From: an uncultured Bacillales bacterium
Lineage (GTDB): Bacteria > Bacillota_I > Bacilli_A > RFN20 > CAG-288
Direction: 5' to 3'
DNA: 64,000 nt
Assembly (NCBI GenBank): GCA_905211645.1
Contig: CAJMBK010000008.1
Span: 8,272-72,271, forward strand
Position 1 is the first letter of the stretch; every line of letters starts with the position of its first letter. A program made the translations under genes and the position numbers. This document shows positions 1,275 through 63,465 of this stretch, piece by piece. Below the pieces are notes generated by a model that ran no database searches, had not been told where the DNA came from, and saw only the letters and a program-made list of their open reading frames with translations.

Positions 1275-2174
1275 TTATAAAATCTTCTTTTTGAAGTTGA
1301 ATCTGACTAAATCTTCCTCATTAATAAAATCGTCATAGATATAATCTGACAATTCTGAAACTTTGTTGACCCAATGCAACGCATGGTGTTTAACTCTTGG
1401 ATGGGAATGATTCATGCAGAATGAGTGAGGAAATTCTTTGAATAAGCAGATATCATTTCCAGAATCTCCAACAACGTAGACTTCGTTTTTATCGATTCCT
1501 TGCTTCTCAATATACCTTTGCAATGCTAAAGCTTTTGTCGCATTTACTGAAGTTATTTCAATAGATGAATCGGAATCAACCACATTAACTTTATCTCGAT
1601 AATGTTCTTTCAAAAGTTTAGAAAACTTGTAAGCATCATCAAAATTAGTTTTTCCTAAACCGAAATTGATAACAAGTTTATAAATCTTCTCAGTTTTAAT
1701 CTTATTGATAAATTTATTCTTGTTAAAAATTAAAGATTCCCTATATGAAAATCTTAAAGCACCAACTGCTTTAACAATTAAATCGAGGGCGACATTCATC
1801 TTTGAATAGACAAGCATTCCATTTGCTAAGTCAAATAGAAGCCAACATTTGATACCTTCATAATCTTGATATTTATTGAAGATTTCCATGATGATATCGT
1901 TATTCAAAGGATTCAAATCGTAAATCTGATCGTTTTCATCGACTGTGAAACCACCATTGCAACCGATGTAACCAATCTTTGATTTAATCTTTTTTTCAAT
2001 CTTGTGCTTTAATTTAGGATTTCTTCCTGTGATGCAGACAACTTTTCCGCCATTTCTTGCAAAATCAGAAAGGAACTTTACATTGTCCTTATCTATCAAC
2101 GATAAATATTTTTTAGGATAAAGTAAAGTTCCATCTAAATCAGTAGCGATAAGTTTAATTTGATTATTAGACAT
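1275..2174 (-). CDS. HAD-superfamily hydrolase, Cof-type (subfamily IIB)
   Basis: N-terminal DLDGTLL motif, C-terminal GDSGND motif, ~300 aa cap-containing architecture. Confidence 0.8.
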   Translation of the reverse strand: MSNNQIKLIATDLDGTLLYPKKYLSLIDKDNVKFLSDFARNGGKVVCITGRNPKLKHKIEKKIKSKIGYIGCNGGFTVDENDQIYDLNPLNNDIIMEIFNKYQDYEGIKCWLLFDLANGMLVYSKMNVALDLIVKAVGALRFSYRESLIFNKNKFINKIKTEKIYKLVINFGLGKTNFDDAYKFSKLLKEHYRDKVNVVDSDSSIEITSVNATKALALQRYIEKQGIDKNEVYVVGDSGNDICLFKEFPHSFCMNHSHPRVKHHALHWVNKVSELSDYIYDDFINEEDLVRFNFKKKIL

Positions 2175-6781: not shown

Positions 6782-7051
6782 TTAGCGATTTGCTAAATCT
6801 TGTTTATACATTTTTAATGCTTTAGCAATTTGGTCTGGGCAGCTTGTACCCTTGGTATGGCATTCAACGCCTTCCAAACAATTGATAACTTCATCAATTG
6901 ATCTTCCTTTAACTAAGGCAGCGATACCTTTCAAATTACCGTTGCAACCACCGACGACTCTTAATGAAACAATCTTGTCATTTTCGTCAATTTCAAACTC
7001 CATTTCTTTGGAGCAAACACCTTGTGGTTTATATTTGAAAATTTTAACCAT
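6782..7051 (-). CDS. TSCPD-domain small protein (TIGR03905-like 4-Cys protein)
   Basis: 89 aa with conserved ...KGTSCPDQIAKAL... and four Cys; last gene of the rnf-linked operon. Confidence 0.55.
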   Translation of the reverse strand: MVKIFKYKPQGVCSKEMEFEIDENDKIVSLRVVGGCNGNLKGIAALVKGRSIDEVINCLEGVECHTKGTSCPDQIAKALKMYKQDLANR

Positions 7052-7053
7052 AT

Positions 7054-7614
7054 TTACCTTCTCCTTTTTATTCTTGCACGATCTTTAAATGGTGGCATTC
7101 TCACTAAAAGCATGCGGCAGATTATGGATAATAATAATCCTGCTAACATTGAAAGAAGTGCTAAGATTGCAAGATAACTAATTATATAAAATTGCATTGA
7201 GATGAGGGCGTACATTAGCACCTGTCCCGTTGCGTGGAATAAAGCAGAAACAATAGAAACAGAATAGATGGAACATTTCAAAAACTTGTAGAGTATTATT
7301 GAAATAATAACCGCAAATGTCGAACCAGAGAATGAAAGTAAAAATCCCGTTCCAAAACCGGTGGAAATTAAGCTAACCAATAAAATTCTGAAGTAAGTTA
7401 CTGCTAAATACTCCTTCCAATCAATATAAAATAGAACGAATAATCCTACAATATTTGCTAATCCCAATTTAAAACCAGGAATAGGGATTGGAATTACAAT
7501 AAGGTTTTCAAAGTAATGAATTACACTAGCAAGGGCGACAAATAATGCAATTCTTACGATACGTTCAATGGATAGATTACGCATCTGGCAAATCAGGATC
7601 AACGTAGCCACCAA
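7054..7614 (-). CDS. Gx transporter family membrane protein (heptaprenyl-diphosphate-synthase-component-I-like, PF07456-type)
   Basis: 186 aa, ~5 TM helices, sequence pattern typical of this family; overlaps upstream NusG_II gene by 38 nt. Confidence 0.5.
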   Translation of the reverse strand: MVATLILICQMRNLSIERIVRIALFVALASVIHYFENLIVIPIPIPGFKLGLANIVGLFVLFYIDWKEYLAVTYFRILLVSLISTGFGTGFLLSFSGSTFAVIISIILYKFLKCSIYSVSIVSALFHATGQVLMYALISMQFYIISYLAILALLSMLAGLLLSIICRMLLVRMPPFKDRARIKRRR

Positions 7615-8065
7615 CGATAACTATCGAAAGATGATTTGGATCGCAGATAATTGGAACGTTGGAATAGGAGATAACTCCCTGATGAGAACAGATCTTTCTA
7701 GGGCTAGTTTCCTGGACAACTTGAATGGAATGGTCAACGATTCTAACTTCAACTGTGTCGCCTACAAATTCAAATTCTTGACCATTTTCATTAGGTTTGA
7801 TGTTATTTTTTGAATCTCCGGTAATACCCATCTCTCTAGTGATAACTAATGGGTCATGCTCCTCAGTGATAGGTCTGTAGTAAATAACCTGCTGACCATA
7901 CGAGATTTGAACGTAACTCATATCATCAACGGTGTGAGTCATACCGAAAATTGTGTACATTAAAAGGGCAACTACAAGTAAAATTGAAATAGCAATTACA
8001 ATCACATCACGCACGTGTAAATTGTAGCGTGGATTAATTTTACTGTTGTTACCCATTATTTGCAC
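7577..8065 (-). CDS. NusG domain II-containing protein (DUF1312-like), N-terminal membrane anchor
   Basis: 162 aa, single N-terminal TM then beta-rich domain; classic partner gene of Gx transporter. Confidence 0.5.
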   Translation of the reverse strand: MQIMGNNSKINPRYNLHVRDVIVIAISILLVVALLMYTIFGMTHTVDDMSYVQISYGQQVIYYRPITEEHDPLVITREMGITGDSKNNIKPNENGQEFEFVGDTVEVRIVDHSIQVVQETSPRKICSHQGVISYSNVPIICDPNHLSIVIVGGYVDPDLPDA

Positions 8066-8073
8066 ACTAAAGT

Positions 8074-8388
8074 TTAGAGAGTAACTTTAACCTTCTCTCC
8101 GTTTGGACCTGTAGAATTGTTTAAATATTCAACAACTTCGTTTGCTTTGTCAGCCTTGATAACTTTGCATTGCTTGACATGAGTTTCTTTTTCAGAAAGT
8201 AATGCATCGACTAAACCGGAACAACCAGGATAGCCGCAAGCACCGCAGTTAACACCTGGCATAAGCTTCATAACTTCATCTTTTCTAGGATCATCTTTAA
8301 CAGAGAAGTATTTAACGAATAATGCGATAAGTAAACTGAATAAAATAGCTGCACCTAGTAATAAAAGTAAAATATACAAATATTCCAT
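8074..8388 (-). CDS. RnfB-like subunit, N-terminal Fe-S domain only (lacks 4Fe-4S ferredoxin domains)
   Basis: N-terminal TM + CGACGYPGC...C motif aligning with RsxB/RnfB residues 1-100; ORF ends where ferredoxin domains normally begin. Confidence 0.65.
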   Translation of the reverse strand: MEYLYILLLLLGAAILFSLLIALFVKYFSVKDDPRKDEVMKLMPGVNCGACGYPGCSGLVDALLSEKETHVKQCKVIKADKANEVVEYLNNSTGPNGEKVKVTL

Positions 8389-8399
8389 AGTTACCTCCT

Positions 8400-8723
8400 T
8401 TATTTGATTGATTTTTCTTTCTTCATCTCTTCGATGAATTTCTTCTGCTCAATTTCAAGTTCCTTCTTTTTCAAAGGTTTAACTGCTTCAAGAGGGACGT
8501 AGAGTTTTCTAGTCCCATCCTTGAAGAAATATTCTTTAATTGAGAATTCTTCCTCCCTTGAGTTGCAAGAAAGCATGCAACTTGCGCAGCCGATATCCTC
8601 TTTTGGACAATCTTCTGGGCGTTTAACTTTCTTGTTAACAAGGTAGAAAATAGCGTATAAGGCAACAAGTACAACAACGACAGGGATGATGTACAAGGCG
8701 TTGTAATTAAAGGTTAAAAACAC
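8400..8723 (-). CDS. Cys-rich small membrane protein (FeoB-associated Cys-rich membrane protein-like)
   Basis: 107 aa: N-terminal TM, KKVKRPEDCPKEDIGCASCMLSC (C-x6-C-x2-C-x3-C), charged C-terminus; sits between rnfA and rnfB-like. Confidence 0.5.
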   Translation of the reverse strand: MFLTFNYNALYIIPVVVVLVALYAIFYLVNKKVKRPEDCPKEDIGCASCMLSCNSREEEFSIKEYFFKDGTRKLYVPLEAVKPLKKKELEIEQKKFIEEMKKEKSIK

Positions 8724-8727
8724 TTAA

Positions 8728-9312
8728 TTAACCCATCATTCCAGATAAGCCTAAGAATGCAAGAGCCATACCGGCAGTGCAGATTAAGCCAATGGCTGGA
8801 CCTTTGAAACCACGAGGAACCAAAGGATTGTTTTGGATTCTTTCTTGAATTGCAGAAAAGACGTAGATAACTAAGAAATAACCTAAAGGTGTACCGATGA
8901 TTGTACCTAATGTTGTACCGACGGAAACAGCTTCACCACCTGTGTAAGCGACTGATAATGCGACGCCTAAAACAACACAGTTTGTGGTGATTAAAGGTAA
9001 GTAGATACCTAAACTCTTGTAAAGGCTTGGAACGAATTTCTTGATGAAGATTTCAAGAAGTTGGACAAAGCTTGCAATGACAAGAATGAAGATGATGGTG
9101 TTCATGAATGTAACACCGATGAGTGCAGTTAAATAGGATAAACCCCAGCAGATGAGTCCAGATAAGATGGAAACAACTGTTAAGGCAAGACCCATACCGG
9201 TAGCAGTCTTCTTATTGGAGGAGACGCCAAGGTAGGAACATAAACCTTTGGTACCGGATAAAACAACGTTGTTAACAAGTAAACTACCAAAGAATGCAAC
9301 GATAAATGACAT
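8728..9312 (-). CDS. rnfA: Rnf electron transport complex subunit A
   Basis: GIYLPLITTNCVVLG core motif, 6 TM, 194 aa. Confidence 0.85.
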   Translation of the reverse strand: MSFIVAFFGSLLVNNVVLSGTKGLCSYLGVSSNKKTATGMGLALTVVSILSGLICWGLSYLTALIGVTFMNTIIFILVIASFVQLLEIFIKKFVPSLYKSLGIYLPLITTNCVVLGVALSVAYTGGEAVSVGTTLGTIIGTPLGYFLVIYVFSAIQERIQNNPLVPRGFKGPAIGLICTAGMALAFLGLSGMMG

Positions 9313-9314
9313 GA

Positions 9315-10076
9315 TTATTTGACCTCCTTAGCTGTTTCTTGTTTTGCTTTTGCTAATAAAGCTTTCTTTGCTTCTATAGCTTTCTTAGTCTTTCTATCAG
9401 AATTCCAAAGTCTGATTGTGGTAAAAACACCTAAGACCAAGCCGAAGACGATGAAGCCACCAGCATTTTGAGTAAGTAAAGGAATCTTGATTGCTTCTAA
9501 AGGTAAGAAGGAAAAGATTTGCTTGTTAGTGAATGGGTTAACAAATGTGATACCACCAGTGCCCAAAACTTCTCTAAAGAATGCGATGATTAAGCAAGCG
9601 AGTGCGAAACCGATTGACATGCCAAGAGCATCCAAAACGGATTTACCAACACTGTTCTTCCTTGCGAAGGCTTCAGCACGACCTAAGATGATGCAGTTGA
9701 CTGTGATTAAAGGAATGAAGACACCCAAAGATGTGGAAAGTTCAGGTGTGAATGCCTTTAAAAGTAAATCAACAATGGTAACAAGTGAAGAGATGATGAC
9801 GATGTAGACAGGAACTCTGATTGTGCTTGGAACAATCTTCCTAATAAGTGAAACGAGTAAATTAGAGAAGAATAAGACAATGAGAACTGCAACTGACATA
9901 CCGAGTGCATTGTTGATTGATGTTGTTGCGATAAAGACTGGACATAAACCGAGTAAGCCGACTAAGAGTGGATTCTCTCTGATGATGCCGGCTGTGAAAG
10001 TTTTTAACAATACATTTTCCTTTTTATCAGGAACTGAAGTATTGATTGGTTTAGCATTAATATTTCTTTCTTCCAT
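9315..10076 (-). CDS. rnfE: Rnf electron transport complex subunit E
   Basis: LGLCPVF...GVFIPLITVNCIILGRAEAFA motifs, paralogous to RnfA. Confidence 0.85.
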   Translation of the reverse strand: MEERNINAKPINTSVPDKKENVLLKTFTAGIIRENPLLVGLLGLCPVFIATTSINNALGMSVAVLIVLFFSNLLVSLIRKIVPSTIRVPVYIVIISSLVTIVDLLLKAFTPELSTSLGVFIPLITVNCIILGRAEAFARKNSVGKSVLDALGMSIGFALACLIIAFFREVLGTGGITFVNPFTNKQIFSFLPLEAIKIPLLTQNAGGFIVFGLVLGVFTTIRLWNSDRKTKKAIEAKKALLAKAKQETAKEVK

Positions 10077-10078
10077 AA

Positions 10079-11257
10079 TTATGCCTCCAATGAGCTGATG
10101 GCTTCACCAGCAGCGTTAAGTGCTTTGACCATAGATGGTACGGTTAATTCAGAGCTTGAACCTGTGATGATAGCATCACCTTTTTGTGTTCCTGGGTCAG
10201 AACCTAAGATATAGGCTTGATCCACTTTACCAATCTTGGTTGATGTATCGAAAATGGCATTGATAATTTGCTCGTACAAAAGATTTGATTCTGTATTCAA
10301 CTCGGAATCGTCGATTAAATAAATTTGATCAAGAACTAAATCATCATTATGTTCGTAAATTACAGCGCCGAAAATAACATTACCAAATTGAGGTTCAATA
10401 CTTTCAAGTTTGGCGTAATAACCTTTGGTTGAAGTAGCATTTTCTCTTTGATTTTCGTATTCAAAGGTGTAAAGCTCTAAAACGTTTTCGGTTGCTTCGT
10501 AAGCGGTCTTGACAACAGAGCCTTCCTTCAAGTTATCACCAACAATTGCGGTGATTGCTTCTGGGATTGAAGTTTCTGTATCACTACCATCGCCACCTTG
10601 ATTGTCATCGCCACCTTCACCGGTGTAAGTTGCACCGACACTGTTATAGTGTTTCAAGCAGTAATCAACTGCATCTTGAACAACAGGTGTAGTTTTTTGA
10701 GCAGTACCAGAAGTTTGGATGTATTGAGTGAAATCTTCACCAGCTTGATAACCAGGAACAACGGTGATATTTGTGTAGGCGTTAACACCTAAACTATCTT
10801 CACCAGCGTTTGAATTCAATTTGAATGCGTAAACAGAGCCGTTACCCTTGCCACCAACGATAATCATTGAAACGACAAGTGAACCGGAATAACCTCTTTC
10901 GGTTGTGATGGTGTAGAAGCGGACTGATTCAGTGTCAGTACCTTCCATCAAAGGTTCAGTGACGTAGCACTTTGCAAAAACGTTGATATTTTTATTATTG
11001 CCAGGAATAGTGTCGAAACCTTCAACGCCATCCAAGCCTTTTGTAGTATCGAGTTTGCCTTCAAGCAAGGTGTAAGCATCGTTGTATTTTTGAGCTTCTT
11101 GGTGCTCTAAAACAATTGGATTTGTGCCGGCGTAAACACCGACAACTGCACCACCAGCAACTAAGCAGGTAATACCTAATACTAAAGGATATTTGATAAA
11201 GTTAGACATCTTCTTCTTAGGAGCTTTAGTAGTCTTATTTGTATTAATTTCTGACAT
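10079..11257 (-). CDS. rnfG: Rnf subunit G with N-terminal TM anchor, FMN-binding domain and a second C-terminal FMN-bind-like repeat
   Basis: GYSGSLVVSMIIVGG ... TSGTAQKTTPVVQDAV (FMN_bind); C-terminal module (aa 240-392) homologous to the repeats fused to RnfD, ends ...ITGSSSELTVPSMVKALNAA. Confidence 0.75.
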   Translation of the reverse strand: MSEINTNKTTKAPKKKMSNFIKYPLVLGITCLVAGGAVVGVYAGTNPIVLEHQEAQKYNDAYTLLEGKLDTTKGLDGVEGFDTIPGNNKNINVFAKCYVTEPLMEGTDTESVRFYTITTERGYSGSLVVSMIIVGGKGNGSVYAFKLNSNAGEDSLGVNAYTNITVVPGYQAGEDFTQYIQTSGTAQKTTPVVQDAVDYCLKHYNSVGATYTGEGGDDNQGGDGSDTETSIPEAITAIVGDNLKEGSVVKTAYEATENVLELYTFEYENQRENATSTKGYYAKLESIEPQFGNVIFGAVIYEHNDDLVLDQIYLIDDSELNTESNLLYEQIINAIFDTSTKIGKVDQAYILGSDPGTQKGDAIITGSSSELTVPSMVKALNAAGEAISSLEA

Positions 11258-11268
11258 ATTTAACCTCC

Positions 11269-13470
11269 TTATCCTCTAATAATATTTGCTGCTTGGGCTA
11301 AAGCAGACATAACATCTGGAACTGTTTCTGCACTTGATGGAGCAGTATTGACATAGAAATCTTGGATATTTGATGAAGAACCAAGATCGAATTCATGGTT
11401 GATTGAGTTGATTTCAAGTTTAGTTGATAAATCAAAGATCAATGAGATGAAATGTTCATATAAACCATTATCTGGATGATTTTGCATTTCACTACCATCA
11501 ACTAAATACATGTGATGAACTGTGAGTTTATCACCGTTTTGGATGATTATTGCAGAGAATTCAACAGCACCGAACATTGAACCACTTGTCTTCATTCTTG
11601 CGTAGTAAGCAGTGTTGCTTGTTGCAGAAGCAGGAGCTTCAGTGAATTCGAATGAATACAATTCGAGAACGTTCTTATTTGAATCCTTGTCGAATTCGAT
11701 AGCAGTCATTGATTCTGGATCAAATGAATCACCAGCCATTGCCTTCATACCTGGAGCCTTGCTTTCAACGTTAGTTGGATCGATGATTGAAGCAAGTTTA
11801 ACCAAGGTGTTGTTGATTGCAGGTAATGTGTCTGTTGAAGTTGCACCGGAGATGATTGTTGAAGGATCACCACCTAAAACAACGTAGTGAGTATTCTTAT
11901 CATACTTGGAAAGATGATAGTTTGCTTGACTTGCATCGGTGTAGAAGAGGGAACCGATAACTTGTTCATACAAACCATTTGATTCTGTATCCATCTCGGA
12001 ATCGTCGATAAGATACATTGAATATAAGTTAAGATCTTTGGTTTGTTTATCTTGATACAAGATTGCGGAGAACATGATGTCACCGTAACTTGCACCACTA
12101 GTCATCAAGTTTGCATAGTATGCTGTTGCTCTATCGGTACCGGTAACAGCACTATCTGTTAAAGTGAAGCTTGCTAACTTCAAGACTTGATCTCTATCTG
12201 CTCTATCAACACTGATATTTCTAAATGAATCTGGATCATAGTATTGATTTGCAGTCATTTCGTTGAAACCGTAGTATTTGTTAGGAGAGTAGGTAGGTTG
12301 ATTCATTGCACCGAATGAAACACCGAATAATAAGGATGCGGCAGGTAAAACACTGATTGCAGTGTATTTTGTCCACATATGTTGATTGGTTCTTGCATAA
12401 ACTAATCTATCAATTAATGGAGTGACCATGTTCATGATTAAGATTGAATAAGCAACACCTTCTGGTGCGGCAGCAAAGAATCTGATCATCATAGTGATAA
12501 ATGCAGCACCGGTTGCAAAGATGATCTTACCAGTTCTGTTAACTGGGGATGTAACTGGGTCAGTTAAGCATAAGACGCCACCGAAGAGGACACCACCAGC
12601 CATGATTGCTCTGAATGCGAATTCAAAGCTATCGACGCCCATACCTTGGCAAGCTGCCATCAATAAGTATGTGACAAAGATAGTACCGATGAAGAATGTA
12701 GGAACCCTCCAGTCGATAATTCTTCTGACGATTAAGTAGATACCAATAATAATTAATAAGAAGGCGAAAGTTTCACCTAATGTACCGAAGTACTTACCAA
12801 GGAACATGTCCAAGGTTGAGATTTGTGTGATTGAGTTGTTGATGTTGAAAACATCTGTACCGGAAAAAAGTGTTGAGGTGATGGAAGCACCAGTGTTGAT
12901 TGTGAAATCAAGTGGCTTTTCACCTAAGAATGTCTTAAGTTCTGATGAGAAGCAGAGCTGAGCAAAAATTCTTCCAATGATTGCAGGGTTGAAGATATTT
13001 CCACCGAAACCGCCAAAGACGTTCTTAAAGACAAATGTTGCACCAAATGATGTGATCATAACGACCCACATTGGTGTGCCAACAGGTAAAAGTAAAGCAA
13101 CTAACAAACCTGAAACGTAGGAGTAGTTGAAGATAAACTTCTTGAAGTATGCTTTAACTCTTGTTTCACCTTTTGGAAGGTTTAAACGTTTCTCATCCTT
13201 CCAGAAAATAGGAAGATAGAATATAGCGTCGGCAAGTACTGAGAATAACATTGCACAAACGCCCATGCCGATTACTTTAAGACCGTAATACCAACCGTAG
13301 TAATTTCTGGCGAGGAGTTCTTCGCTTGATAAGAAGGTGTCGCTGACTGAGTAGAAGATAATTGCTGCTACCCATAAAGCGACGACGCAACCGAAGAATT
13401 CCATCATCATCTTGAAGGTTGAATTCTTACCTCTTAAATGTGGTCCGGCTTGATTAGCAAACTTAACCAT
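11269..13470 (-). CDS. rnfD: Rnf subunit D (NqrB family) fused to an extra TM helix and two C-terminal FMN-bind-like domains
   Basis: Core FGGFGGNIFNPA, TGASITS flavinylation-type motif, TDPVTSP; aa 368-388 extra hydrophobic helix; repeats aa 440-565 (ends ISGATSTDT) and 610-733. Confidence 0.8.
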   Translation of the reverse strand: MVKFANQAGPHLRGKNSTFKMMMEFFGCVVALWVAAIIFYSVSDTFLSSEELLARNYYGWYYGLKVIGMGVCAMLFSVLADAIFYLPIFWKDEKRLNLPKGETRVKAYFKKFIFNYSYVSGLLVALLLPVGTPMWVVMITSFGATFVFKNVFGGFGGNIFNPAIIGRIFAQLCFSSELKTFLGEKPLDFTINTGASITSTLFSGTDVFNINNSITQISTLDMFLGKYFGTLGETFAFLLIIIGIYLIVRRIIDWRVPTFFIGTIFVTYLLMAACQGMGVDSFEFAFRAIMAGGVLFGGVLCLTDPVTSPVNRTGKIIFATGAAFITMMIRFFAAAPEGVAYSILIMNMVTPLIDRLVYARTNQHMWTKYTAISVLPAASLLFGVSFGAMNQPTYSPNKYYGFNEMTANQYYDPDSFRNISVDRADRDQVLKLASFTLTDSAVTGTDRATAYYANLMTSGASYGDIMFSAILYQDKQTKDLNLYSMYLIDDSEMDTESNGLYEQVIGSLFYTDASQANYHLSKYDKNTHYVVLGGDPSTIISGATSTDTLPAINNTLVKLASIIDPTNVESKAPGMKAMAGDSFDPESMTAIEFDKDSNKNVLELYSFEFTEAPASATSNTAYYARMKTSGSMFGAVEFSAIIIQNGDKLTVHHMYLVDGSEMQNHPDNGLYEHFISLIFDLSTKLEINSINHEFDLGSSSNIQDFYVNTAPSSAETVPDVMSALAQAANIIRG

Positions 13471-14885
13471 TATTTTTTAACCTCCTCATTCTTCTCATTC
13501 TTTTTCTTAGAAAAGAGTGAAGTGATGAATTTCTTAATTTTTTCTTTGCTCTCTTGAGCTTCGGTCATTTGACCAGGTTTGAATTTCATTCTAGCCATCA
13601 TCTTAGCTTTGGACATGTTGGCTGTGACATCGATGTGGGATGGGCAGACAAATGAACACATACCGCATTCGACACACTTCAAGACATCCAATTCGTAGCA
13701 ACGATCGACGTCGCCTCTGTTGATAGCCATTTGAATTTGAACTGGTTGTAAGCCCATTGGGCAGTGATCGACACACTTACCACACTTCCAGCATGGTTCG
13801 GCGTGAATGTCGTACTTAGATAAGATTGTGAAACCACCAGATTGTAAAACTGTTGGGAAATCTGCAGTTAAAACTGCTCTACCGCACATTGGACCACCGT
13901 TGACGATCTTGACATCTTCCAAGGCGTAACCGCCAGTTGATTTGATAATTTCATCAACTAAGGTACCGACTGGGCATTCGACGTTAGTTTGATTGCTGAC
14001 GCCATCACCAGCGATTGTGATAACCTTCTTGGAAATTGTTGCACCATCTCTGAAAAGTCTACCAACTGCTTCAAGAGTTTGTAAGTTGTTGACGATTACA
14101 TGACATTCTGCAGGTAAAACGTTGTAACTTCTGTGAAAAACGTAAGAGATGAGTGTTCTTTCAAAACCCATTGGGTAACGATCTGGAGTCAAAGTGATCT
14201 CGATAATTTCCTTGAGTTCAGGATGATTCTTCAAGGCGTTTGTGCAAGCTTCAATCAAATGAGGTTTGTTTTCCTTGATTGCAATGATTGCTCTCTTTGC
14301 ATTCATGACTTTAACTAAAATTGGTAATGCATAGAACAAATCTTCGATGCATCTGCTACCTTCGAGGTAGTCAGTTGTCAAGTAAGGCTCACATTCGATT
14401 GCATTGACTAAAATAGTGTCAATTTTAACTTCGGGTTTGGTGTTATATTTGATGAATGTTGGGAAACCAGCACCACCAAGACCAACGATACCACCTTCTT
14501 TAATCTTGTTAACAACATCTTCTTTAGTTGGATTATCAACCAACTTTTCTAAGTGCTCTGTTGTGTACAATTTGTCATTTTCGATGACAAAGTGATCGAC
14601 TTGTCTTCCACAGATTGTAGAAGTTTTCTTTTCAATAGCGACAATTTTACCGCTAACTGATGAGTAAACTGGAATACCAAAGTCACCTCTGATACCAAGT
14701 CTAGTGCCCACTTTTACTGAAGCACCAACCTCCAACATTTCATTCAAAGGCATAGCTTTATTGTCTACGCATTGAATGTAGACCTTATCAGGTTCGTAGC
14801 TAACGATAGGATTATCAGCTTGAGGGTGTTTATGACCATCGATCTTAGTCATACCACTAGTTCCTAAAAACTTAAAATTAGGCAT
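13470..14885 (-). CDS. rnfC: Rnf subunit C (NADH-binding, 2x[4Fe-4S])
   Basis: GLGGAGFPTFIKY NADH/FMN motif; CWKCGKCVDHCP and CVECGMCSFVCP ferredoxin motifs; ATGA overlap with rnfD. Confidence 0.85.
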   Translation of the reverse strand: MPNFKFLGTSGMTKIDGHKHPQADNPIVSYEPDKVYIQCVDNKAMPLNEMLEVGASVKVGTRLGIRGDFGIPVYSSVSGKIVAIEKKTSTICGRQVDHFVIENDKLYTTEHLEKLVDNPTKEDVVNKIKEGGIVGLGGAGFPTFIKYNTKPEVKIDTILVNAIECEPYLTTDYLEGSRCIEDLFYALPILVKVMNAKRAIIAIKENKPHLIEACTNALKNHPELKEIIEITLTPDRYPMGFERTLISYVFHRSYNVLPAECHVIVNNLQTLEAVGRLFRDGATISKKVITIAGDGVSNQTNVECPVGTLVDEIIKSTGGYALEDVKIVNGGPMCGRAVLTADFPTVLQSGGFTILSKYDIHAEPCWKCGKCVDHCPMGLQPVQIQMAINRGDVDRCYELDVLKCVECGMCSFVCPSHIDVTANMSKAKMMARMKFKPGQMTEAQESKEKIKKFITSLFSKKKNEKNEEVKK

Positions 14886-42120: not shown

Positions 42121-42994
42121 AAATTGACTCCTTTGCTTCTTCTAATAATTTTGTGTAGTTTGAGTAATGTTTAAGTTTTTGCTCATCTTCATTGTATCTA
42201 AAACAAACATTACAGATGTTTTTATCTTCGTTTGTATGTAAACAATCTCTGTATTTACAATCGTGTGAATAGAGCGAAAATCCTGGGAAATTCTCAGCGA
42301 TATCAGCCTTAGTTAAATCAAGTTCAAATGATGAAAATCCAGGTGTATCACCGATGAATCCGTTGTTATAAGGAATTAAAGTAACGCTTTTTGTAACGTG
42401 TTTTCCTCTACCTTTAATAACTTGATAATCACCTTCTTGGAATGAAAATGATGAATCTATTTTATTGAGCATTGTTGATTTTCCAACACCGGATTGACCC
42501 ATGACACAGATTGTCTTATTCTTAGTTAATTCAATAAGTTTTTCAACATCCATAATACCATCAATTGATGAGTAAAAACATGAAATACCTAAGCTTTCAT
42601 AGTATTCTCTTTCTTTTTGAATACTTGCTTTCTCTTCATCGTTCAAGAGATCATATTTAGAAAAAATAATAACAGGTCTAATGGATGAATAGTGTGCGGT
42701 TAATAGGTACTTATCCAACATGAAAGAGGAATAATTAGGCTCTTTAACTGATATTATTACTAATACAATATCAACATTAGCAATTCTTGGTCTAGTTAAT
42801 AAAGTGGTTCTTTCTAAACGTTCTTTAATGTTATTTTCTTCATCCAAAATAACGTTGTCACCAACCATTAAATTACCTTTATTAAAGACAACATTTTTTC
42901 TAACTTTACAAACTCTTTTATCTTCATGATTTTCAGTATTAACTAAAACATAACCTAAAGAGGAGTTTGAACAAACTTTATAAATATTACCCAT
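42107..42994 (-). CDS. rsgA: ribosome small-subunit-dependent GTPase A
   Basis: GQSGVGKSTMLN P-loop, C-terminal Zn finger CKYRDCLHTNEDKNICNV. Confidence 0.85.
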   Translation of the reverse strand: MGNIYKVCSNSSLGYVLVNTENHEDKRVCKVRKNVVFNKGNLMVGDNVILDEENNIKERLERTTLLTRPRIANVDIVLVIISVKEPNYSSFMLDKYLLTAHYSSIRPVIIFSKYDLLNDEEKASIQKEREYYESLGISCFYSSIDGIMDVEKLIELTKNKTICVMGQSGVGKSTMLNKIDSSFSFQEGDYQVIKGRGKHVTKSVTLIPYNNGFIGDTPGFSSFELDLTKADIAENFPGFSLYSHDCKYRDCLHTNEDKNICNVCFRYNEDEQKLKHYSNYTKLLEEAKESIYGRK

Positions 42995-43875
42995 TATTTC
43001 TTACCTTTTGAGAATAAGCGTTTGAAGAATCCTTGTTTAGTTTCAATCATTGAAGGGTTCTTAACAATCTGTTGAATATCTTCTCTCATGTTGTAGACAG
43101 ATTTATATCTGTCATTAGGAGATTTCATCGTTGCTTTCAAAATAATTTTTTCTATACATGCTGGAGTTTTTGAATTGTATTTCTTTGGAGATGGGAATTT
43201 TTCCTTGATATGTTTTAAAGCAACCATGACAGCTGAATCATCATCGTAAGGAACTCTTCCAGTAATCAATTCAAAGAATGTAATACCTAAAGAATAGATA
43301 TCAGATTGAGGTGAAGCAACATTTCCTTGAGAAATTTCAGGTGCTAAATAGTGAACAGAACCGACAACAACTTCGCTTCTTGTAACATGACTTGCATTTG
43401 TGAAAGTTGCGATACCAAAATCACCAAGTTTAATAGTTCCGTCCGCTAAAACATAGACATTTTGAGGTTTGATATCTCTGTGAATAACACCATGTTGATG
43501 TGCGTATAAAACTGCGTTACAAAGTTGAAGCATGACATCGCACGCTTCGATAAATGAGAGTTTTCCTCTTTGGTTTAAAACGTCTCTAAGTGTCTTACCG
43601 TTAACAAATTCATTAACCATGTAAGGACGGCCTTTGTAATTACCAAGAGTAACAACTCTGACAATATTTGGATGATTCAAACTAGCTGCAGTTCTTGCTT
43701 CTCTTTCAAAACGAGTGAGATTCACTGCGTTTTTCATAGTTTCTTCCTTAATAATTTTCAAAGCAAAATCTTTATTTAAAATTAAATCTTTTGCCTTATA
43801 AACTATTGCCATACCGCCTTCACCAAGAACAGCATCAAGGCGATATCTTCCGTCAATAACATCATTTAATTCCAT
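42994..43875 (-). CDS. Ser/Thr protein kinase (Hanks type), kinase domain only
   Basis: ALKII Lys, HRDIKPQNV, DFG, APE motifs; 293 aa without TM or PASTA repeats. Confidence 0.8.
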   Translation of the reverse strand: MELNDVIDGRYRLDAVLGEGGMAIVYKAKDLILNKDFALKIIKEETMKNAVNLTRFEREARTAASLNHPNIVRVVTLGNYKGRPYMVNEFVNGKTLRDVLNQRGKLSFIEACDVMLQLCNAVLYAHQHGVIHRDIKPQNVYVLADGTIKLGDFGIATFTNASHVTRSEVVVGSVHYLAPEISQGNVASPQSDIYSLGITFFELITGRVPYDDDSAVMVALKHIKEKFPSPKKYNSKTPACIEKIILKATMKSPNDRYKSVYNMREDIQQIVKNPSMIETKQGFFKRLFSKGKK

Positions 43876-52584: not shown

Positions 52585-53262
52585 ATGTCAGATAAGAAGA
52601 AAAAACAAGAAACCGGTGTTGAAAGCGTCACTGCTACACCTTATGGTGAAGCAACAGTCAATAAGAGCAGTAACACCATCAAAAATAAATTTAGAATCTT
52701 CTGGAGATGGTTCAAAGAAGATGCAACCTGGCTCCAAGTCTTACTTATTATTCTCGTAATTTTCGGTGTATTTATCGGTGTTTCATATTCAATTCCAGCA
52801 ATTAAGAATGCAATTGAACAAGGTAAAGTATCAACTTTCTATAAAGATCATCAAATTACATATGCTGAACTTGAAGAAAAGAGAAAATCAGAAGAACAAT
52901 TCACTGTCTTCTTCTATGGTGAAAATTGTACTCACTGTGAAACTGTTCAAAACGGTGTTGAAGAATACTACACTGATTTAGGTAAAGATAATGTTGTCTA
53001 CACCATCAATATTGAAGATAAAGACTACATCACACAAGAACAAATCACATTCTTACACGATGAATTAGCAGTTGTCTACGATACTCAAGATCCTGAATAT
53101 ATTTCCTCAGAATACAAGAGCTTCACAGATGCTTCATCAACTGGTATCCCAACTCCTACAATTGTTATCTACAGAGATGGTACTCCAATTAGAGTTGTTT
53201 TAGGTATCGATGAATCTAACCCTGTTAAATATTTATCTGATACTTTCTACGATAATTTATAA
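52585..53262 (+). CDS. membrane-anchored thioredoxin-like protein (extracytoplasmic CxxC)
   Basis: N-terminal Lys-rich segment + single TM, then Trx-like domain with FFYGENCTHCE. Confidence 0.6.
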   Translation: MSDKKKKQETGVESVTATPYGEATVNKSSNTIKNKFRIFWRWFKEDATWLQVLLIILVIFGVFIGVSYSIPAIKNAIEQGKVSTFYKDHQITYAELEEKRKSEEQFTVFFYGENCTHCETVQNGVEEYYTDLGKDNVVYTINIEDKDYITQEQITFLHDELAVVYDTQDPEYISSEYKSFTDASSTGIPTPTIVIYRDGTPIRVVLGIDESNPVKYLSDTFYDNL

Positions 53263-53330: not shown

Positions 53331-53891
53331 ATGAAAAAAATAAAATACTTAACTTTAACATTTGTTTCTCTTTTTTCTCTTCAAAGTTGTAACATTTACA
53401 AACAAAATACTGTTAACTATGAGGAGTATCTTACTCATTGTGATAATGACGAAACATTTTTCTTGTCTTTATATGGTACTTCATGCCATGCATGTGAATC
53501 AGCTTTAAAAGATGTAACTTCTTATTTCAAAAATAATCAAGAAGTTCCAGTATATTTCATGGATGCTCAAACTTTATTCCAAACTGGAAATGAAAGCCAA
53601 AGAGAAAATATTTACAATACAGTTGTTTCAGCCTACACAAAAAATGAAGCAAATTATCGCTATAGATACTTCACTTCTGAAATTAGTGAAGTCACTTCTG
53701 AAAACTTCAAAGATTATTTCCCAAGTTTAGTTACACCTACTAACATTCTTTTTAAAGATGGTGAAGCAGTTTCGGTTAGATTTGGTTATTACAATCTTGC
53801 TAAAGATGCTACACCAGAAAACCAAACTTTGGAAGAAAACGGAGTTGCTGAAACATTGGATAACATGCTTAAACAAGCAGGTCTCAAATAA
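53331..53891 (+). CDS. thioredoxin-like lipoprotein (paralogue of preceding gene)
   Basis: Signal peptide with lipobox LQSC, then LSLYGTSCHACE CxxC motif; alignable to 52585-53262 product. Confidence 0.6.
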   Translation: MKKIKYLTLTFVSLFSLQSCNIYKQNTVNYEEYLTHCDNDETFFLSLYGTSCHACESALKDVTSYFKNNQEVPVYFMDAQTLFQTGNESQRENIYNTVVSAYTKNEANYRYRYFTSEISEVTSENFKDYFPSLVTPTNILFKDGEAVSVRFGYYNLAKDATPENQTLEENGVAETLDNMLKQAGLK

Positions 53892-60504: not shown

Positions 60505-60700
60505 GGCGACCTTAAAGCAAGGCGAGGCTAATTACGAGACACGGATGCATGCCTGATAGAAAAGGAGACTTTCCTAGATGGCCAACAGCTATAATTGACG
60601 CCAAAGTTATAGATAATTGCATTCAAACGCTTGTAGAAGTTGAAGCTCACGCGTCAAAAGGTACCTTTAGGCTTCCTTTCGATGTTATGTTTTAAGGAAG
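60505..60700 (+). promoter_or_regulatory. M-box (ykoK-type) Mg2+ riboswitch candidate in mgtA leader
   Basis: Blocks AGGCGAGGCU, GAGACACGGAUGCAUGCC, AUGGCCAACAG, AUUGACGCCAAAGUUAU match M-box consensus; followed by hairpins next to the RBS. Confidence 0.55.
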
Positions 60701-60714
60701 TTTGGAGGTATCTT

Positions 60715-63465
60715 ATGAAAATTTTAAAGAATAAGAGAATCCTAATTGCTTCCTCATTAGCTACATCAAAGCAAAAAGATTTTTTGCTTGAAGTTTCTAA
60801 AATGGACAATAAGGATTTGCAAGAAAAATTCCAAGTCGATTTCGAAAAAGGAATTTTAACTGAAAATCTTGAGACTTTAGAAGAAACATATGGTAAAAAT
60901 ACCATCACTAAAGTTAAAAAAGAACCGATTATAATAAAACTACTTAAATCATTTGCTTCACCTTTTATTTTAATCTTACTTTTCATTGCAATAATTTCTG
61001 CAATCATCAACTATTTTGATAGTGGTGCTGATGAACATGCTACTTGGTTTATCACTCCTATCATCATTTTAGCCATGATTCTTTTGTCTGGTTTAATCTC
61101 TTTCAGCCAAAATTTGAAGTCTGAAAGATCAATGAATAACCTTAAAAACATGACTGAAAATAACTCTTTAGTTTTAAGAGACGGAGTTAAACAAGATATT
61201 TTAAATGAGCACTTAACAATAGGAGATATCGTCTATCTTTCTTCGGGTGACATGATTCCAGCAGATTTAAGAATCATTCAAAGCAAAGAATTATTCTTGG
61301 TTCAAGCAACATTAACCGGTGAGCAAGATGCAATTGAAAAGAAACCTACTACAGCTGAACTTAAAGACGAAAATGATCTTTTCAATCTTGAGAATATGGT
61401 TTTCCAAGGAACAACTGTCGTTTCCGGTAGTGGTGTTGGTGTTGTCTGTTCAATTGGAAATAATACAATCTTTGGCTCACTTTCTAAAAAAGTGTCTGAA
61501 AAGAAAGGCAAAACATCATTTGAGATTGGAATTAATTCTATCGCTAGATTACTTTTAATATTTGTCTCTGTTATGGTTCCATTAATTCTTATTTTCAGAG
61601 GCTTTGGTCTTCAAATTTCAGGAAACGGAGTATCAATTGGTAGCTATAATGATTTGACTCAATGGACTCAAGCATTCGTTTTTGCAATCTCAGTTGCAAT
61701 AGGAATGATGCCAACCCTTTTACCTATGCAAATTGCATCAAACTTAGCAAAGGGTGCAATTAACATGTCCAAGAAACAAGTTATTGTTAAAGATATCAAC
61801 TCCATTCAAAATTTTGGTGCTATGAATATCTTATGCACTGATAAAACTGGAACTTTAACTGAGAATAAATCTAAAGTTGCAAGTTACTTCTCAGCATGGA
61901 ATGAAGAAGATGAAAAGATTCTTCGTTTAACTTTCTTAAATTCCTACTATCAAACAGGTATTAAATCTTCAATTGACACTTCAGTTCTTGATTATGTTAA
62001 CTCCAATCAAACTAACTTCCAAAAAACAATTAGTGGTATGACAAAACTTGATGAAATTCCATTTGATTTTGAAAGAAAGAGACTTTCTGTTCTTTTAAAA
62101 GATGGTGATGGAAATATCTTCATGATTACAAAAGGTGCCTTGAATAACATGCTTTCAATCCTTAAATACATCAAGACTAAAAATGGTGTTAGACAAATTA
62201 TTCAAGACGATATTAGGACAATCCAACACAATATCGAAAAAGAAGCTGATAAAGGTAGGAGAGCAATTATTATTGCAACCAAGAATTTAGATAAAACTGA
62301 AATCGGTGTAGCTGATGAAAATGAATTAACCTACAACGGCTACATCTCTTTTGAAGATACACCAAAAGAAAGTGTAACTTCTGCATTAAAGAGTCTTAAA
62401 GAATACGGTGTTGAAGTTAAAGTTTTAACCGGTGATTTAAAAAATAATGCTGTCAATATCTGCCAACAAGTCGGTTTTGAAAATATCAAAGTTATCTCTG
62501 GAACTGAACTTAATAAGTTAAATCAAGAAGATTATCATAAAGCAGTCAAAGAGAATAATATCTTTGTCAAACTTACTCCAGAAGATAAATTCAATATCGT
62601 CAAAGCATTAAGAGAGAATAAGAATGTTGTTGGTTTCATGGGTGATGGCATTAATGATGGTCCAGCACTCCACGAAGCAGATATCGGAATTTCTTTTAAG
62701 GATGCTACTGATATCGCTAAAGAAACTGCAGATATCATCATGCTAAACAACAATTTAAATGTCTTAGCTGAAGGTATTCTTGAAGGTAGAAAATCATACT
62801 TAAATATGATCAAGTACATCAAGATTCAAACTTCATCAAATTTTGGTAACATGATCAGCCAAATCATCGGCTCCCTATTCATTCCATTTTTACCAATGAG
62901 AGCTCTTCAAATTATTCTATTAGGTTTAATTTCAGATTTCTCATCTTCATTTATACCATTTGATAAGGTCGATAAAAAAGATTTGATGCAACCTATCAAA
63001 TTTTCAACAAAATCTATCAGAAACTTCATGTTCACATTCGGACCAGTTTCTTCCATTGTTGATATATTAACTTTCATTACATTACTACTCTATATTTGCC
63101 CTATGCAGGCAGGAGGAGCACTAAATAGTTTGGATACAGAAGGTAAGCTTCTCTTTATTGCACTTTTCCAAACTGGTTTCTTCCTAGAATCACTAATTAC
63201 GCAAAACTTTGTCTTTTTAACCTTAAGAACTGATAGAATTCCATTTATTAAATCTCGTCCATCAGTTATTTTCTCACTCAGTGTAGTTGTTGCAATCTTA
63301 ATTGGCTTCTTTGTCTGCTATGTTCCTGTAGTTAGCCATATCTTCTCATTTGGTGATTTATCAATTATCTTCATCGGTATCTTAGCTGGAATGCTAGCTT
63401 TATACATCACACTAACTCAAGCGATAAAACCTCTATACAAGAAGTTCAATTTGAATTATCTATAA
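60715..63465 (+). CDS. mgtA: Mg2+-importing P-type ATPase
   Basis: DKTGTLT, TGDLKNNA, GDGINDGPAL motifs, ~915 aa, 10 TM; start set at MKILKNKR after tggaggt RBS. Confidence 0.85.
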   Translation: MKILKNKRILIASSLATSKQKDFLLEVSKMDNKDLQEKFQVDFEKGILTENLETLEETYGKNTITKVKKEPIIIKLLKSFASPFILILLFIAIISAIINYFDSGADEHATWFITPIIILAMILLSGLISFSQNLKSERSMNNLKNMTENNSLVLRDGVKQDILNEHLTIGDIVYLSSGDMIPADLRIIQSKELFLVQATLTGEQDAIEKKPTTAELKDENDLFNLENMVFQGTTVVSGSGVGVVCSIGNNTIFGSLSKKVSEKKGKTSFEIGINSIARLLLIFVSVMVPLILIFRGFGLQISGNGVSIGSYNDLTQWTQAFVFAISVAIGMMPTLLPMQIASNLAKGAINMSKKQVIVKDINSIQNFGAMNILCTDKTGTLTENKSKVASYFSAWNEEDEKILRLTFLNSYYQTGIKSSIDTSVLDYVNSNQTNFQKTISGMTKLDEIPFDFERKRLSVLLKDGDGNIFMITKGALNNMLSILKYIKTKNGVRQIIQDDIRTIQHNIEKEADKGRRAIIIATKNLDKTEIGVADENELTYNGYISFEDTPKESVTSALKSLKEYGVEVKVLTGDLKNNAVNICQQVGFENIKVISGTELNKLNQEDYHKAVKENNIFVKLTPEDKFNIVKALRENKNVVGFMGDGINDGPALHEADIGISFKDATDIAKETADIIMLNNNLNVLAEGILEGRKSYLNMIKYIKIQTSSNFGNMISQIIGSLFIPFLPMRALQIILLGLISDFSSSFIPFDKVDKKDLMQPIKFSTKSIRNFMFTFGPVSSIVDILTFITLLLYICPMQAGGALNSLDTEGKLLFIALFQTGFFLESLITQNFVFLTLRTDRIPFIKSRPSVIFSLSVVVAILIGFFVCYVPVVSHIFSFGDLSIIFIGILAGMLALYITLTQAIKPLYKKFNLNYL

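Follow-up and report, generated by a model that had tools for sequence, protein, structure and literature searches.

A 64-kb stretch of DNA from an uncultured Bacillales bacterium (contig CAJMBK010000008.1; the window, meaning this whole stretch, which has about 32% G+C and reads cleanly with genetic code 11) contains an rnf operon in which two subunits, RnfD and RnfG, run on into additional repeated domains. We regard it as probable, if well short of certain, that this operon represents a diverged member of a widespread and undescribed variant of the Rnf complex, in which RnfG modules have been copied onto both RnfD and RnfG and only one of the added modules is still covalently flavinylated. 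In many anaerobes Rnf is the principal redox enzyme that pumps ions, and its mechanism depends on a single mobile outward-facing flavin domain, RnfG, which moves back and forth between RnfA/E and RnfD. Uncultured gut Bacilli of a large group have one to five further RnfG-like domains tethered to RnfD together with a truncated RnfB, and such tethered modules bear on the shuttle mechanism and on the question whether Rnf feeds electrons to the outside of the cell.

Repeats appended to RnfD and RnfG

The six genes of the RnfCDGEAB complex form one minus-strand operon in the order rnfC-D-G-E-A-(107-aa ORF)-rnfB, as read from the list of open reading frames (ORFs; lengths in amino acids, aa) and Pfam (Table 1). 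Subunits C, D, E, A and B are identified by Pfam or NCBIfam matches, and RnfG has been assigned from its operon position, its anchor helix and a weak match to TIGR01947. An initial annotation had described RnfD as continuing past its NqrB-like core into one extra hydrophobic helix and two repeats, the same repeat forming the C-terminal half of RnfG, and this description has been borne out. In the 733-aa RnfD, the Pfam domain NQR2_RnfD_RnfE is limited to aa 7-360, the alignment of the core with the solved chains 7zc6_D and 9eri_D extends to the C-terminal ends of these chains, and solved RnfD chains (310-366 aa) stop about ten residues past the equivalent of aa 356, just before a hydrophobic segment at aa 370-389. 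Each repeat comprises about 150 aa, two being located in the RnfD tail and one in RnfG; BLASTP aligns RnfD 564-731 with RnfG 223-387 (36% identity, E 1e-25) and RnfD 427-556 with RnfG 257-380 (36% identity, E 5e-19). The three-repeat alignment has 33 invariant columns and contains all of the repeat motifs quoted in the initial annotation, with only the limits of the repeats in need of adjustment, as the envelopes from the hidden Markov model (HMM) are slightly wider (RnfD 409-564 and 581-732; RnfG 241-388). No further copy of the repeat has been found elsewhere in the window.

An assembly or frameshift artefact was considered and rejected, because 14 distinct variants of the 733-aa RnfD and nine of the 392-aa RnfG, each set uniform in length, occur in independent metagenome assemblies.

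Origin and topology of the RnfD extension

Canonical RnfD possesses ten helices, and its last ten residues are cytoplasmic and located on RnfC (PMC9588780, PMC12174285). In the relatives of the window, the RnfD segment consisting of extra helix, linker and first domain matches the RnfG segment consisting of anchor, linker and core over 160 columns (hhalign E 1.7e-17), with the match beginning inside the helices. By this colinearity with full RnfG, the RnfD extension looks like a captured copy of rnfG that was fused in frame, which is the simplest reading. Equally, RnfG has a lysine-rich N-terminus (6 K/R within aa 1-22), which suggests an N-in, C-out orientation. Since the extra helix follows the cytoplasmic C-terminus of solved RnfD, and since the extension is colinear with RnfG, the modules of the RnfD tail are by predicted topology probably outside the cell. 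The proposal that the extra helix flips the tail outwards is thereby supported as a prediction.

Probable descent of the repeats from RnfG-type domains

That the repeats are FMN_bind domains, as had been proposed, could not be confirmed directly; what does stand is a link to the RnfG cores of the lineage. These cores and many RnfD tail domains constitute a single family (39 domains, 21 proteins), which includes the RnfG core of the window along with those of four relatives and occurs in one to five copies in RnfD tails. Four distinct repeats match the RnfG-core family with hhalign E 1.6e-7 (probability 94%, 105 columns) and the expanded 39-domain family with E 1.2e-6, while the controls were far weaker, with E 0.69 for the reversed profile, 0.12 for the best of 30 column shuffles and 1.4e-4 for the best of 30 block shuffles. 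The family in turn touches FMN_bind: RnfG of the relative locus L007, which is built of three family members, reaches 27.3 bits with the Pfam FMN_bind model (cut-off 22) in a stretch that overlaps its second domain. The protein P0007 scores 28.6 bits. By remote homology, RnfD would contain two and RnfG another two modules of FMN_bind type, and the view that the repeats are diverged derivatives of RnfG/FMN_bind-type domains is supported by way of this transitive link.

A considerable number of results weighs against this descent. The Pfam FMN_bind model (PF04205), whose application the initial annotation had recommended, matches none of the three repeats, nor the repeat-type domain of the related protein P0003, nor the N-terminal half of RnfG at E values up to 10. 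Whole RnfG is without a Pfam match at E up to 0.1, and its sole library match is the weak one to the NCBIfam model TIGR01947 rnfG (E 0.012, aa 25-133). Taking, with Meheust et al. 2021, as multi-flavinylated an extracytosolic protein with more than one Pfam FMN_bind domain, RnfD and RnfG score zero such domains. Sequence searches of the PDB with RnfG and with the three-repeat profile retrieved nothing, and hhalign comparison of the repeats with the Pfam-positive RnfD tail domains was non-significant (E 0.045-0.07) and restricted to 10-17 columns of the last helix. The profile of the RnfG-core family itself finds no solved RnfG/NqrC by HMM, nor does hhalign connect it with the Pfam-positive set, so that the link to FMN_bind rests on one Pfam match and on operon position. 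A structural model of repeat 1 from a 36-row alignment (predicted local distance difference test, pLDDT, 57.5; predicted template modelling score, pTM, 0.61) has a fairly confident sheet and last helix and a low-confidence middle; as the alignment included genuine FMN_bind domains, the model is partly circular and the predicted structure counts as weak support only. Foldseek with this model gave no significant match in the PDB, and an alignment-free model gave no RnfG matches. An iterated HMM search among RnfD tails recruited no other families.

From these results it might be argued that the repeats have no descent from RnfG or FMN_bind and are a lineage-specific domain with a different fold, similar only in a short C-terminal motif, as the absence of any Pfam or PDB sequence match, the narrow hhalign overlap with Pfam-positive domains and the Foldseek outcome would have it. 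We hold this to be very unlikely, as the match to the RnfG-core family is colinear over full length and lies far above the shuffles, the repeats sit where orthologous RnfD proteins have Pfam-positive FMN_bind domains, and a MAFFT alignment of all domain types is in register through strands, loop and SGAT helix. The chain leading from the repeats to FMN_bind can be considered real but thin.

Flavinylation sites and ApbE

The flavin transferase ApbE recognizes the motif D-x-x-[S/T]-G-A-[S/T], in which loss of the Asp matters little and changes of G to A or of A to V roughly halve flavinylation (PMC12052999). In the window, [S/T]GA[S/T] is present in the RnfD core (TGAS, aa 193-196) and in RnfD repeat 1 (SGAT, aa 541-544), in both cases with the Asp at position -6 absent. 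The motif is departed from in RnfD repeat 2 (TAPS, aa 709-712, within TAPSS, aa 709-713, with Ser712 equivalent to the acceptor), in the RnfG repeat (TGSS, aa 365-368, within TGSSS, aa 365-369) and in the RnfG core (TSGT, aa 182-185), where relatives have SGAS, SGAT or AGAT. A canonical site thus occurs in one of the three added modules; the RnfG core, unusually, lacks one. Of the initial proposal of up to four additional flavin sites, only the site of repeat 1 is left, and its designation as canonical applies to [S/T]GA[S/T] and not to the Asp of the full motif. The flavinylation-type motif of the RnfD core, likewise noted initially, is supported as a putative site: in the alignment with RnfD of C. 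tetanomorphum and A. woodii, TGAS falls on the stretch TTATP/TATP, the region of the flavinylated Thr, the covalent flavin mononucleotide (FMN) of solved RnfD being bound to Thr153 (PMC9588780). The core motif is kept in the relatives P0003 (TGAS), P0004 (SGAS) and P0006 (SGAS).

In a sister lineage (locus L001, protein P0003) the pattern is reversed, with SGAS in the RnfG core and TGGT in the RnfD module. These two cases, and there are only two, hint that one good outward-facing site may be retained per complex.

Against the preferred interpretation it must be counted that the modules thought to carry FMN are picked out by motifs alone, and that ApbE has been found nowhere in the window, either by tblastn with the ApbE of the relative locus L008 or by Pfam on unassigned ORFs. 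When the L008 protein was sought in all relative loci, ApbE was detected near rnf only in L008 and L014, in the latter 2.4 kb downstream of rnfD. The L008 ApbE is a lipoprotein-type protein of 472 aa encoded between hpf (Ribosomal_S30AE) and the gene for an HAD hydrolase (L008 19035-21662). In the window, the corresponding genes (2212-2748 and 1275-2174, minus strand) are adjacent, with no ApbE between them. The conserved site of the RnfD core suggests that the genome does encode ApbE.

A more far-reaching interpretation would have all three added modules and the RnfG core flavinylated and forming an outward flavin chain from Rnf to outside acceptors, in the manner suggested for multi-flavinylated RnfG and PplA-type proteins. 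Relatives with several canonical sites, such as P0078 with two SGAT, P0008 and P0009 with three or four TGA[ST] and L008 RnfG with three [S/A/T]GAS, would be in line with such a chain, as would a Ser or Thr at the acceptor-equivalent position in every module, the about 50% of flavinylation left after single motif substitutions (PMC12052999), the suggestion of multi-flavinylated RnfG as a second path to outside acceptors (PMC8238504) and a short RnfB without a ferredoxin-docking domain, which would fit a changed electron route. For the window itself we nevertheless consider the chain unlikely, since the core motif is changed twice in repeat 2 (G to A, A to P) and once in the RnfG copy (A to S), and TSGT stands in the RnfG core; since the loop equivalent to the flavin-contacting ETPGLG is the most variable part and the repeats evolve at pN/pS 0.7-1.15 (see below); and since the repeats have no Pfam FMN_bind match and the window no ApbE, the gene slot used in L008 being empty.

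Evolutionary rates within the species

For the ratio of non-synonymous to synonymous polymorphism (pN/pS), the window was set against three further contigs from this species. The ratio amounts to 0.06 in the RnfD core, 0.04-0.08 in RnfC, about 0 in RnfA, 0-0.23 in RnfE and 0.15-0.18 in the N-terminal half of RnfG, versus 0.69 in RnfD repeat 1, 1.15 in RnfD repeat 2 and 0.74 in the C-terminal half of RnfG; the contrast between RnfD core and repeats is significant (Fisher p = 0.002), with the reservation, to be held against the preferred interpretation, that the changes per region are few (2-9 synonymous, 2-25 non-synonymous). Variable sites among strain variants make up 3.3% of the RnfD core, 7.3% of repeat 1, 16.6% of repeat 2 and 11.9% of the RnfG repeat. 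Repeat 1 is thus the least variable module, and its SGAT is invariant in 14 strain variants; equally, the flavinylation-site residues themselves are invariant between strains. Hot spots of variability (RnfG aa 318-334; RnfD 494/499 and 665/667) include the loop that replaces ETPGLG. In each of the three repeats, no stretch differs more between strains than this loop, which in RnfG lies at window 10154-10303 (minus strand) and stands in for the conserved flavin-contact loop of FMN_bind. The small counts notwithstanding, the pattern is consistent: the repeats look like exposed domains under relaxed or diversifying selection, with repeat 1 the most constrained. The window thus presents modules with near-neutral rates beside a tightly conserved core.

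Such rates would also suit modules that are altogether free of flavin, the Rnf subunits acting as mere anchors for a fast-evolving exposed shield, binding surface or decoy. A pN/pS near 1 in the repeats against 0-0.08 in Rnf cores, a density of variable sites of 7-17% against 3% and the lack of any library match agree with this idea. A plausible surface pressure is provided by gut Bacteroidales, in which exposed Rnf subunits serve as the receptor for a toxin (PMC12718326), and it is speculation by analogy that the Rnf surfaces considered here experience pressure of that type. On the other hand, repeat 1 retains a canonical and invariant SGAT and is the least variable of the modules, the non-canonical site of the RnfG core means that the complex may need the site of repeat 1, and the conserved site of the RnfD core implies that flavinylation operates in the organism. 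The absence of flavin from all added modules therefore appears to us improbable.

Distribution among relatives

The fusion of such domains to RnfD, thought initially not to have been seen before, is in fact on view in database entries. The architecture survey covered the 80 nearest homologues from a search with full-length RnfD, almost all with a length of 465-1024 aa. An extension of at least 110 aa after the extra hydrophobic segment is present in 73 of these 80, and the other seven end just past the segment; both PF03116 and PF04205 are on record in 24 of the 80. Among these 24 are proteins of Solobacterium sp. from metagenome-assembled genomes (MAGs) that are named only 'RnfD', such as P0060 with 504 aa and P0078 with 700 aa and two FMN_bind domains. 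This can be taken as a warning for annotation, as the labels 'RnfD' and 'hypothetical protein' conceal such modules.

The repeat as a sequence family is far more restricted. An exhaustive repeat-profile HMM search of 1.84 billion representative proteins retrieved three entries, namely this RnfD itself, part of this RnfG and P0003, a 574-aa RnfD with one repeat-type domain. Word-indexed protein searches with the RnfD tail or RnfG found nothing outside the same species, and a scan of GTDB representative genomes with the RnfD tail found neither the species nor a relative; a second genome scan brought up only relatives, labelled 'uncultured Bacilli bacterium', 'Candidatus Scatoplasma merdavium' and 'Erysipelotrichaceae bacterium'. 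The family is thus confined to two narrow lineages, though the architecture is not rare, and the window illustrates that divergence can take such modules wholly out of the reach of standard domain libraries.

Operon and neighbouring genes are conserved in the relative loci L001, L006, L007, L008 and L014, of which L007 is close to 'Candidatus Scatoplasma merdavium' and L014 belongs to an Erysipelotrichaceae MAG. Each of the relative loci examined has a separate rnfG and a short rnfB, and the RnfG proteins of L007 and L008 comprise three modules each. In RnfG of L001 (8192-9202; P0003 lineage) and of L006 (11881-12990), the C-terminal module belongs to a second FMN_bind subtype, which ends in ...VTSATMM... 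or ...VTGATEAT...ELYN(Q/E)HH and is unlike the repeat of the window. Modules have accordingly joined RnfG more than once or have been swapped between lineages. The clade-wide trio of RnfD-RnfG-like fusion, multi-domain RnfG and truncated RnfB is the more interesting lead.

A short RnfB and a small cysteine protein

Canonical RnfB contains a C-terminal polyferredoxin domain with 2-7 [4Fe-4S] clusters, which takes ferredoxin (PMC12174285; domain plan also in PMC9588780). In the window this domain is lacking from RnfB, which matches PF04060 only and has a length of 104 aa, and NCBIfam RnfB models match only over their first 90-100 or so positions. RnfB of 104-110 aa with four invariant Cys is found in an alignment of six lineages. 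Between rnfA and rnfB is encoded a small membrane protein with an invariant DCPK...C-x2-C-x3-C motif in a five-lineage alignment. This protein of 80-110 aa, with DCPK...C-x2-C-M-L-x-C just after the helix and homologues in L001, L006, L007 and L008, has only a weak FeoB_associated match, and its gene was missed by several gene callers.

Proposed evolution and function

Returning to the interpretation favoured here, a lineage related to 'Candidatus Scatoplasma' would have copied RnfG-type modules and appended them to two Rnf subunits. RnfD would have gained a fused rnfG copy, whose anchor helix became the 11th transmembrane helix and carried the chain to the outer face, and whose linker and FMN_bind-type domain followed, the domain being duplicated here into two modules; RnfG would have gained one further module at its own C-terminus. 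In this species the three added modules may then be seen as a very diverged sub-family, whose kinship with the RnfG cores of the lineage shows only when profiles are compared with profiles. RnfD module 1 (SGAT, Thr544) is most likely the sole added module that is still covalently flavinylated. On the outer face it might function alongside the RnfG core (TSGT) or in its place, either as another mobile FMN carrier that links the RnfA/E cluster with the RnfD flavin, or as a side exit to outside acceptors. RnfD module 2 and the C-terminal module of RnfG, with their degenerate sites and an evolution about ten times faster than that of the cores, would be flavin-poor or flavin-free exposed domains, with selection on them relaxed or diversifying.

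A bolder scenario, to which we give little credence, extends this proposal to an entire gut-associated, possibly wall-less clade of Bacilli running a re-wired Rnf, with the rnfG-rnfD fusion, a multi-domain RnfG, an RnfB devoid of the docking domain and the mini-protein with four Cys. RnfC, and with it NADH, would be linked to donors or acceptors outside the cell rather than to ferredoxin. In the species of the window, the flavin carrier would have moved from RnfG (TSGT) to the RnfD module (SGAT), and the other modules would by now be fast-evolving exposed surfaces, perhaps under phage, toxin or host immune pressure.

Other features of the window

Downstream of rnfB follow the genes for a NusG_II protein, an Hpre_diP_synt_I ('Gx transporter') protein and a TSCPD protein, and then metK. 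The first three (6782-8065, minus strand) stand directly after rnfB and are syntenic in all relatives examined, the Hpre_diP_synt_I protein being weakly ECF-like; a putative role in supplying a cofactor to Rnf is possible.

Table 1. Coordinates of the rnf operon and its parts in the window, and of short rnfB genes in relative loci
Feature	Position	Strand	Details
rnfC	13470-14885	-	471 aa; NADH-side subunit, full domain set; Pfam RnfC_N, Complex1_51K, SLBB, Fer4
rnfD	11269-13470	-	733 aa ORF
RnfD core (NqrB/RnfD membrane domain), aa 1-365	12376-13470	-	PF03116 E 2.4e-63, aa 7-360
RnfD core putative flavinylation site TGAS, aa 193-196, acceptor Ser196	12883-12894	-	alignment to solved RnfD
RnfD eleventh hydrophobic helix, about aa 366-391	12298-12375	-	hydropathy peak aa 370-389; past canonical C-terminus
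RnfD repeat 1, aa 409-564, putative diverged RnfG-type FMN_bind-like module	11779-12246	-	HMM envelope
SGAT in RnfD repeat 1, aa 541-544	11839-11850	-	motif position
RnfD repeat 2, aa 581-732	11275-11730	-	HMM envelope; BLASTP to RnfG repeat E 1e-25
rnfG	10079-11257	-	392 aa ORF
RnfG N-terminal anchor helix, aa 20-45	11123-11200	-	hydropathy; Lys-rich N-terminus before helix
RnfG core domain, aa 108-203, lineage-specific FMN_bind subtype	10649-10936	-	member of 39-domain family, E 3.9e-13
RnfG C-terminal repeat, aa 241-388	10094-10537	-	BLASTP; HMM envelope
rnfE	9315-10076	-	253 aa; PF02508 E 1.9e-56
rnfA	8728-9312	-	194 aa; PF02508 E 2.2e-44
Small Cys-rich membrane protein	8400-8723	-	107 aa; weak PF12669 match only
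Short rnfB	8074-8388	-	104 aa; anchor helix and single-cluster FeS domain; PF04060 sole Pfam match
Short rnfB homologues	L001 10860-11192; L006 14770-15099; L007 14982-15308; L008 14648-14974; L014 7268-7582		

A Ser/Thr protein kinase (42994-43875, minus strand) of 293 aa consists of the kinase domain only, without membrane helix or PASTA repeats, and no genes for cell-wall synthesis were seen in the window; both observations fit a wall-less or reduced Bacilli lineage ('-plasma' relatives). Two adjacent genes (52585-53262 and 53331-53891, plus strand) encode exported or anchored C-x-x-C proteins, one with a weak Thioredoxin/AhpC-TSA match and the other lipoprotein-like, which suggests redox reactions at the outer face, for which a source of electrons would be required. 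An M-box (magnesium) riboswitch (60505-60666, plus strand) is located directly upstream of a 941-aa ORF (60640-63465, plus strand), by eye similar to a P-type ATPase; as the riboswitch overlaps the predicted TTG start, the true start codon of the ORF is probably further downstream.

Comparison with known systems

Canonical RnfG/NqrC (7zc6_G, 8ahx_G, 9eri_G, 7xk3_C) consists of anchor helix, linker, alpha/beta FMN domain, motif and helix, and the RnfD extension of the clade is colinear with this plan. In contrast to canonical RnfG/NqrC, the repeats of the window give no sequence match, and the ETPGLG loop is replaced by a hypervariable DDSE(M/L)xTESN.

The multi-flavinylated RnfG (Meheust et al. 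2021, PMC8238504) is likewise an outward Rnf subunit with more than one FMN_bind-type domain, whereas the extra RnfG module of the window is non-canonical (TGSS) and without a Pfam match. Furthermore, the window has modules also on RnfD, which are absent from the main text of that paper; equally, no description of RnfD with outward-facing FMN_bind modules is given in PMC10979944, in a 2025 review on RNF/NQR or in publications retrieved by open-access term searches.

Tandem FMN_bind-type domains on the outer face of a Gram-positive-type membrane also occur in PplA of Listeria monocytogenes, to which the architecture had been likened initially, and in the multi-FMN proteins of PMC10339131. PplA-type proteins are, however, free lipoproteins or secreted and are fed by Ndh2, quinone and EetA/B, while the modules of the window are fused to Rnf subunits, and no genes of extracellular electron transfer (EET) were seen in the window.

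An RnfD/NqrB-type domain with a C-terminal fusion has been described for NQR/RNF-like systems (RnfD-NqrF fusion; PMC8238504, PMC10979944). There the fusion is cytosolic (PF00175) and the RnfD site has been lost, whereas the fusion of the window is predicted to be outside and RnfG-like, with the RnfD core site kept. In accordance, the NAD-binding domain PF00175 is not detected on RnfD of the window, its sole Pfam match being PF03116.

RnfD proteins with a C-terminal FMN_bind domain from MAGs of Erysipelotrichaceae, Solobacterium and uncultured Bacilli, entered in the databases as RnfD only, share with the window the plan of core, helix and one or more domains, the separate rnfG, the short rnfB and the operon order. 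The tails of these RnfD proteins pass Pfam FMN_bind and mostly have a canonical SGAT, whereas the modules of the window are far more diverged and possess only one SGAT among them.

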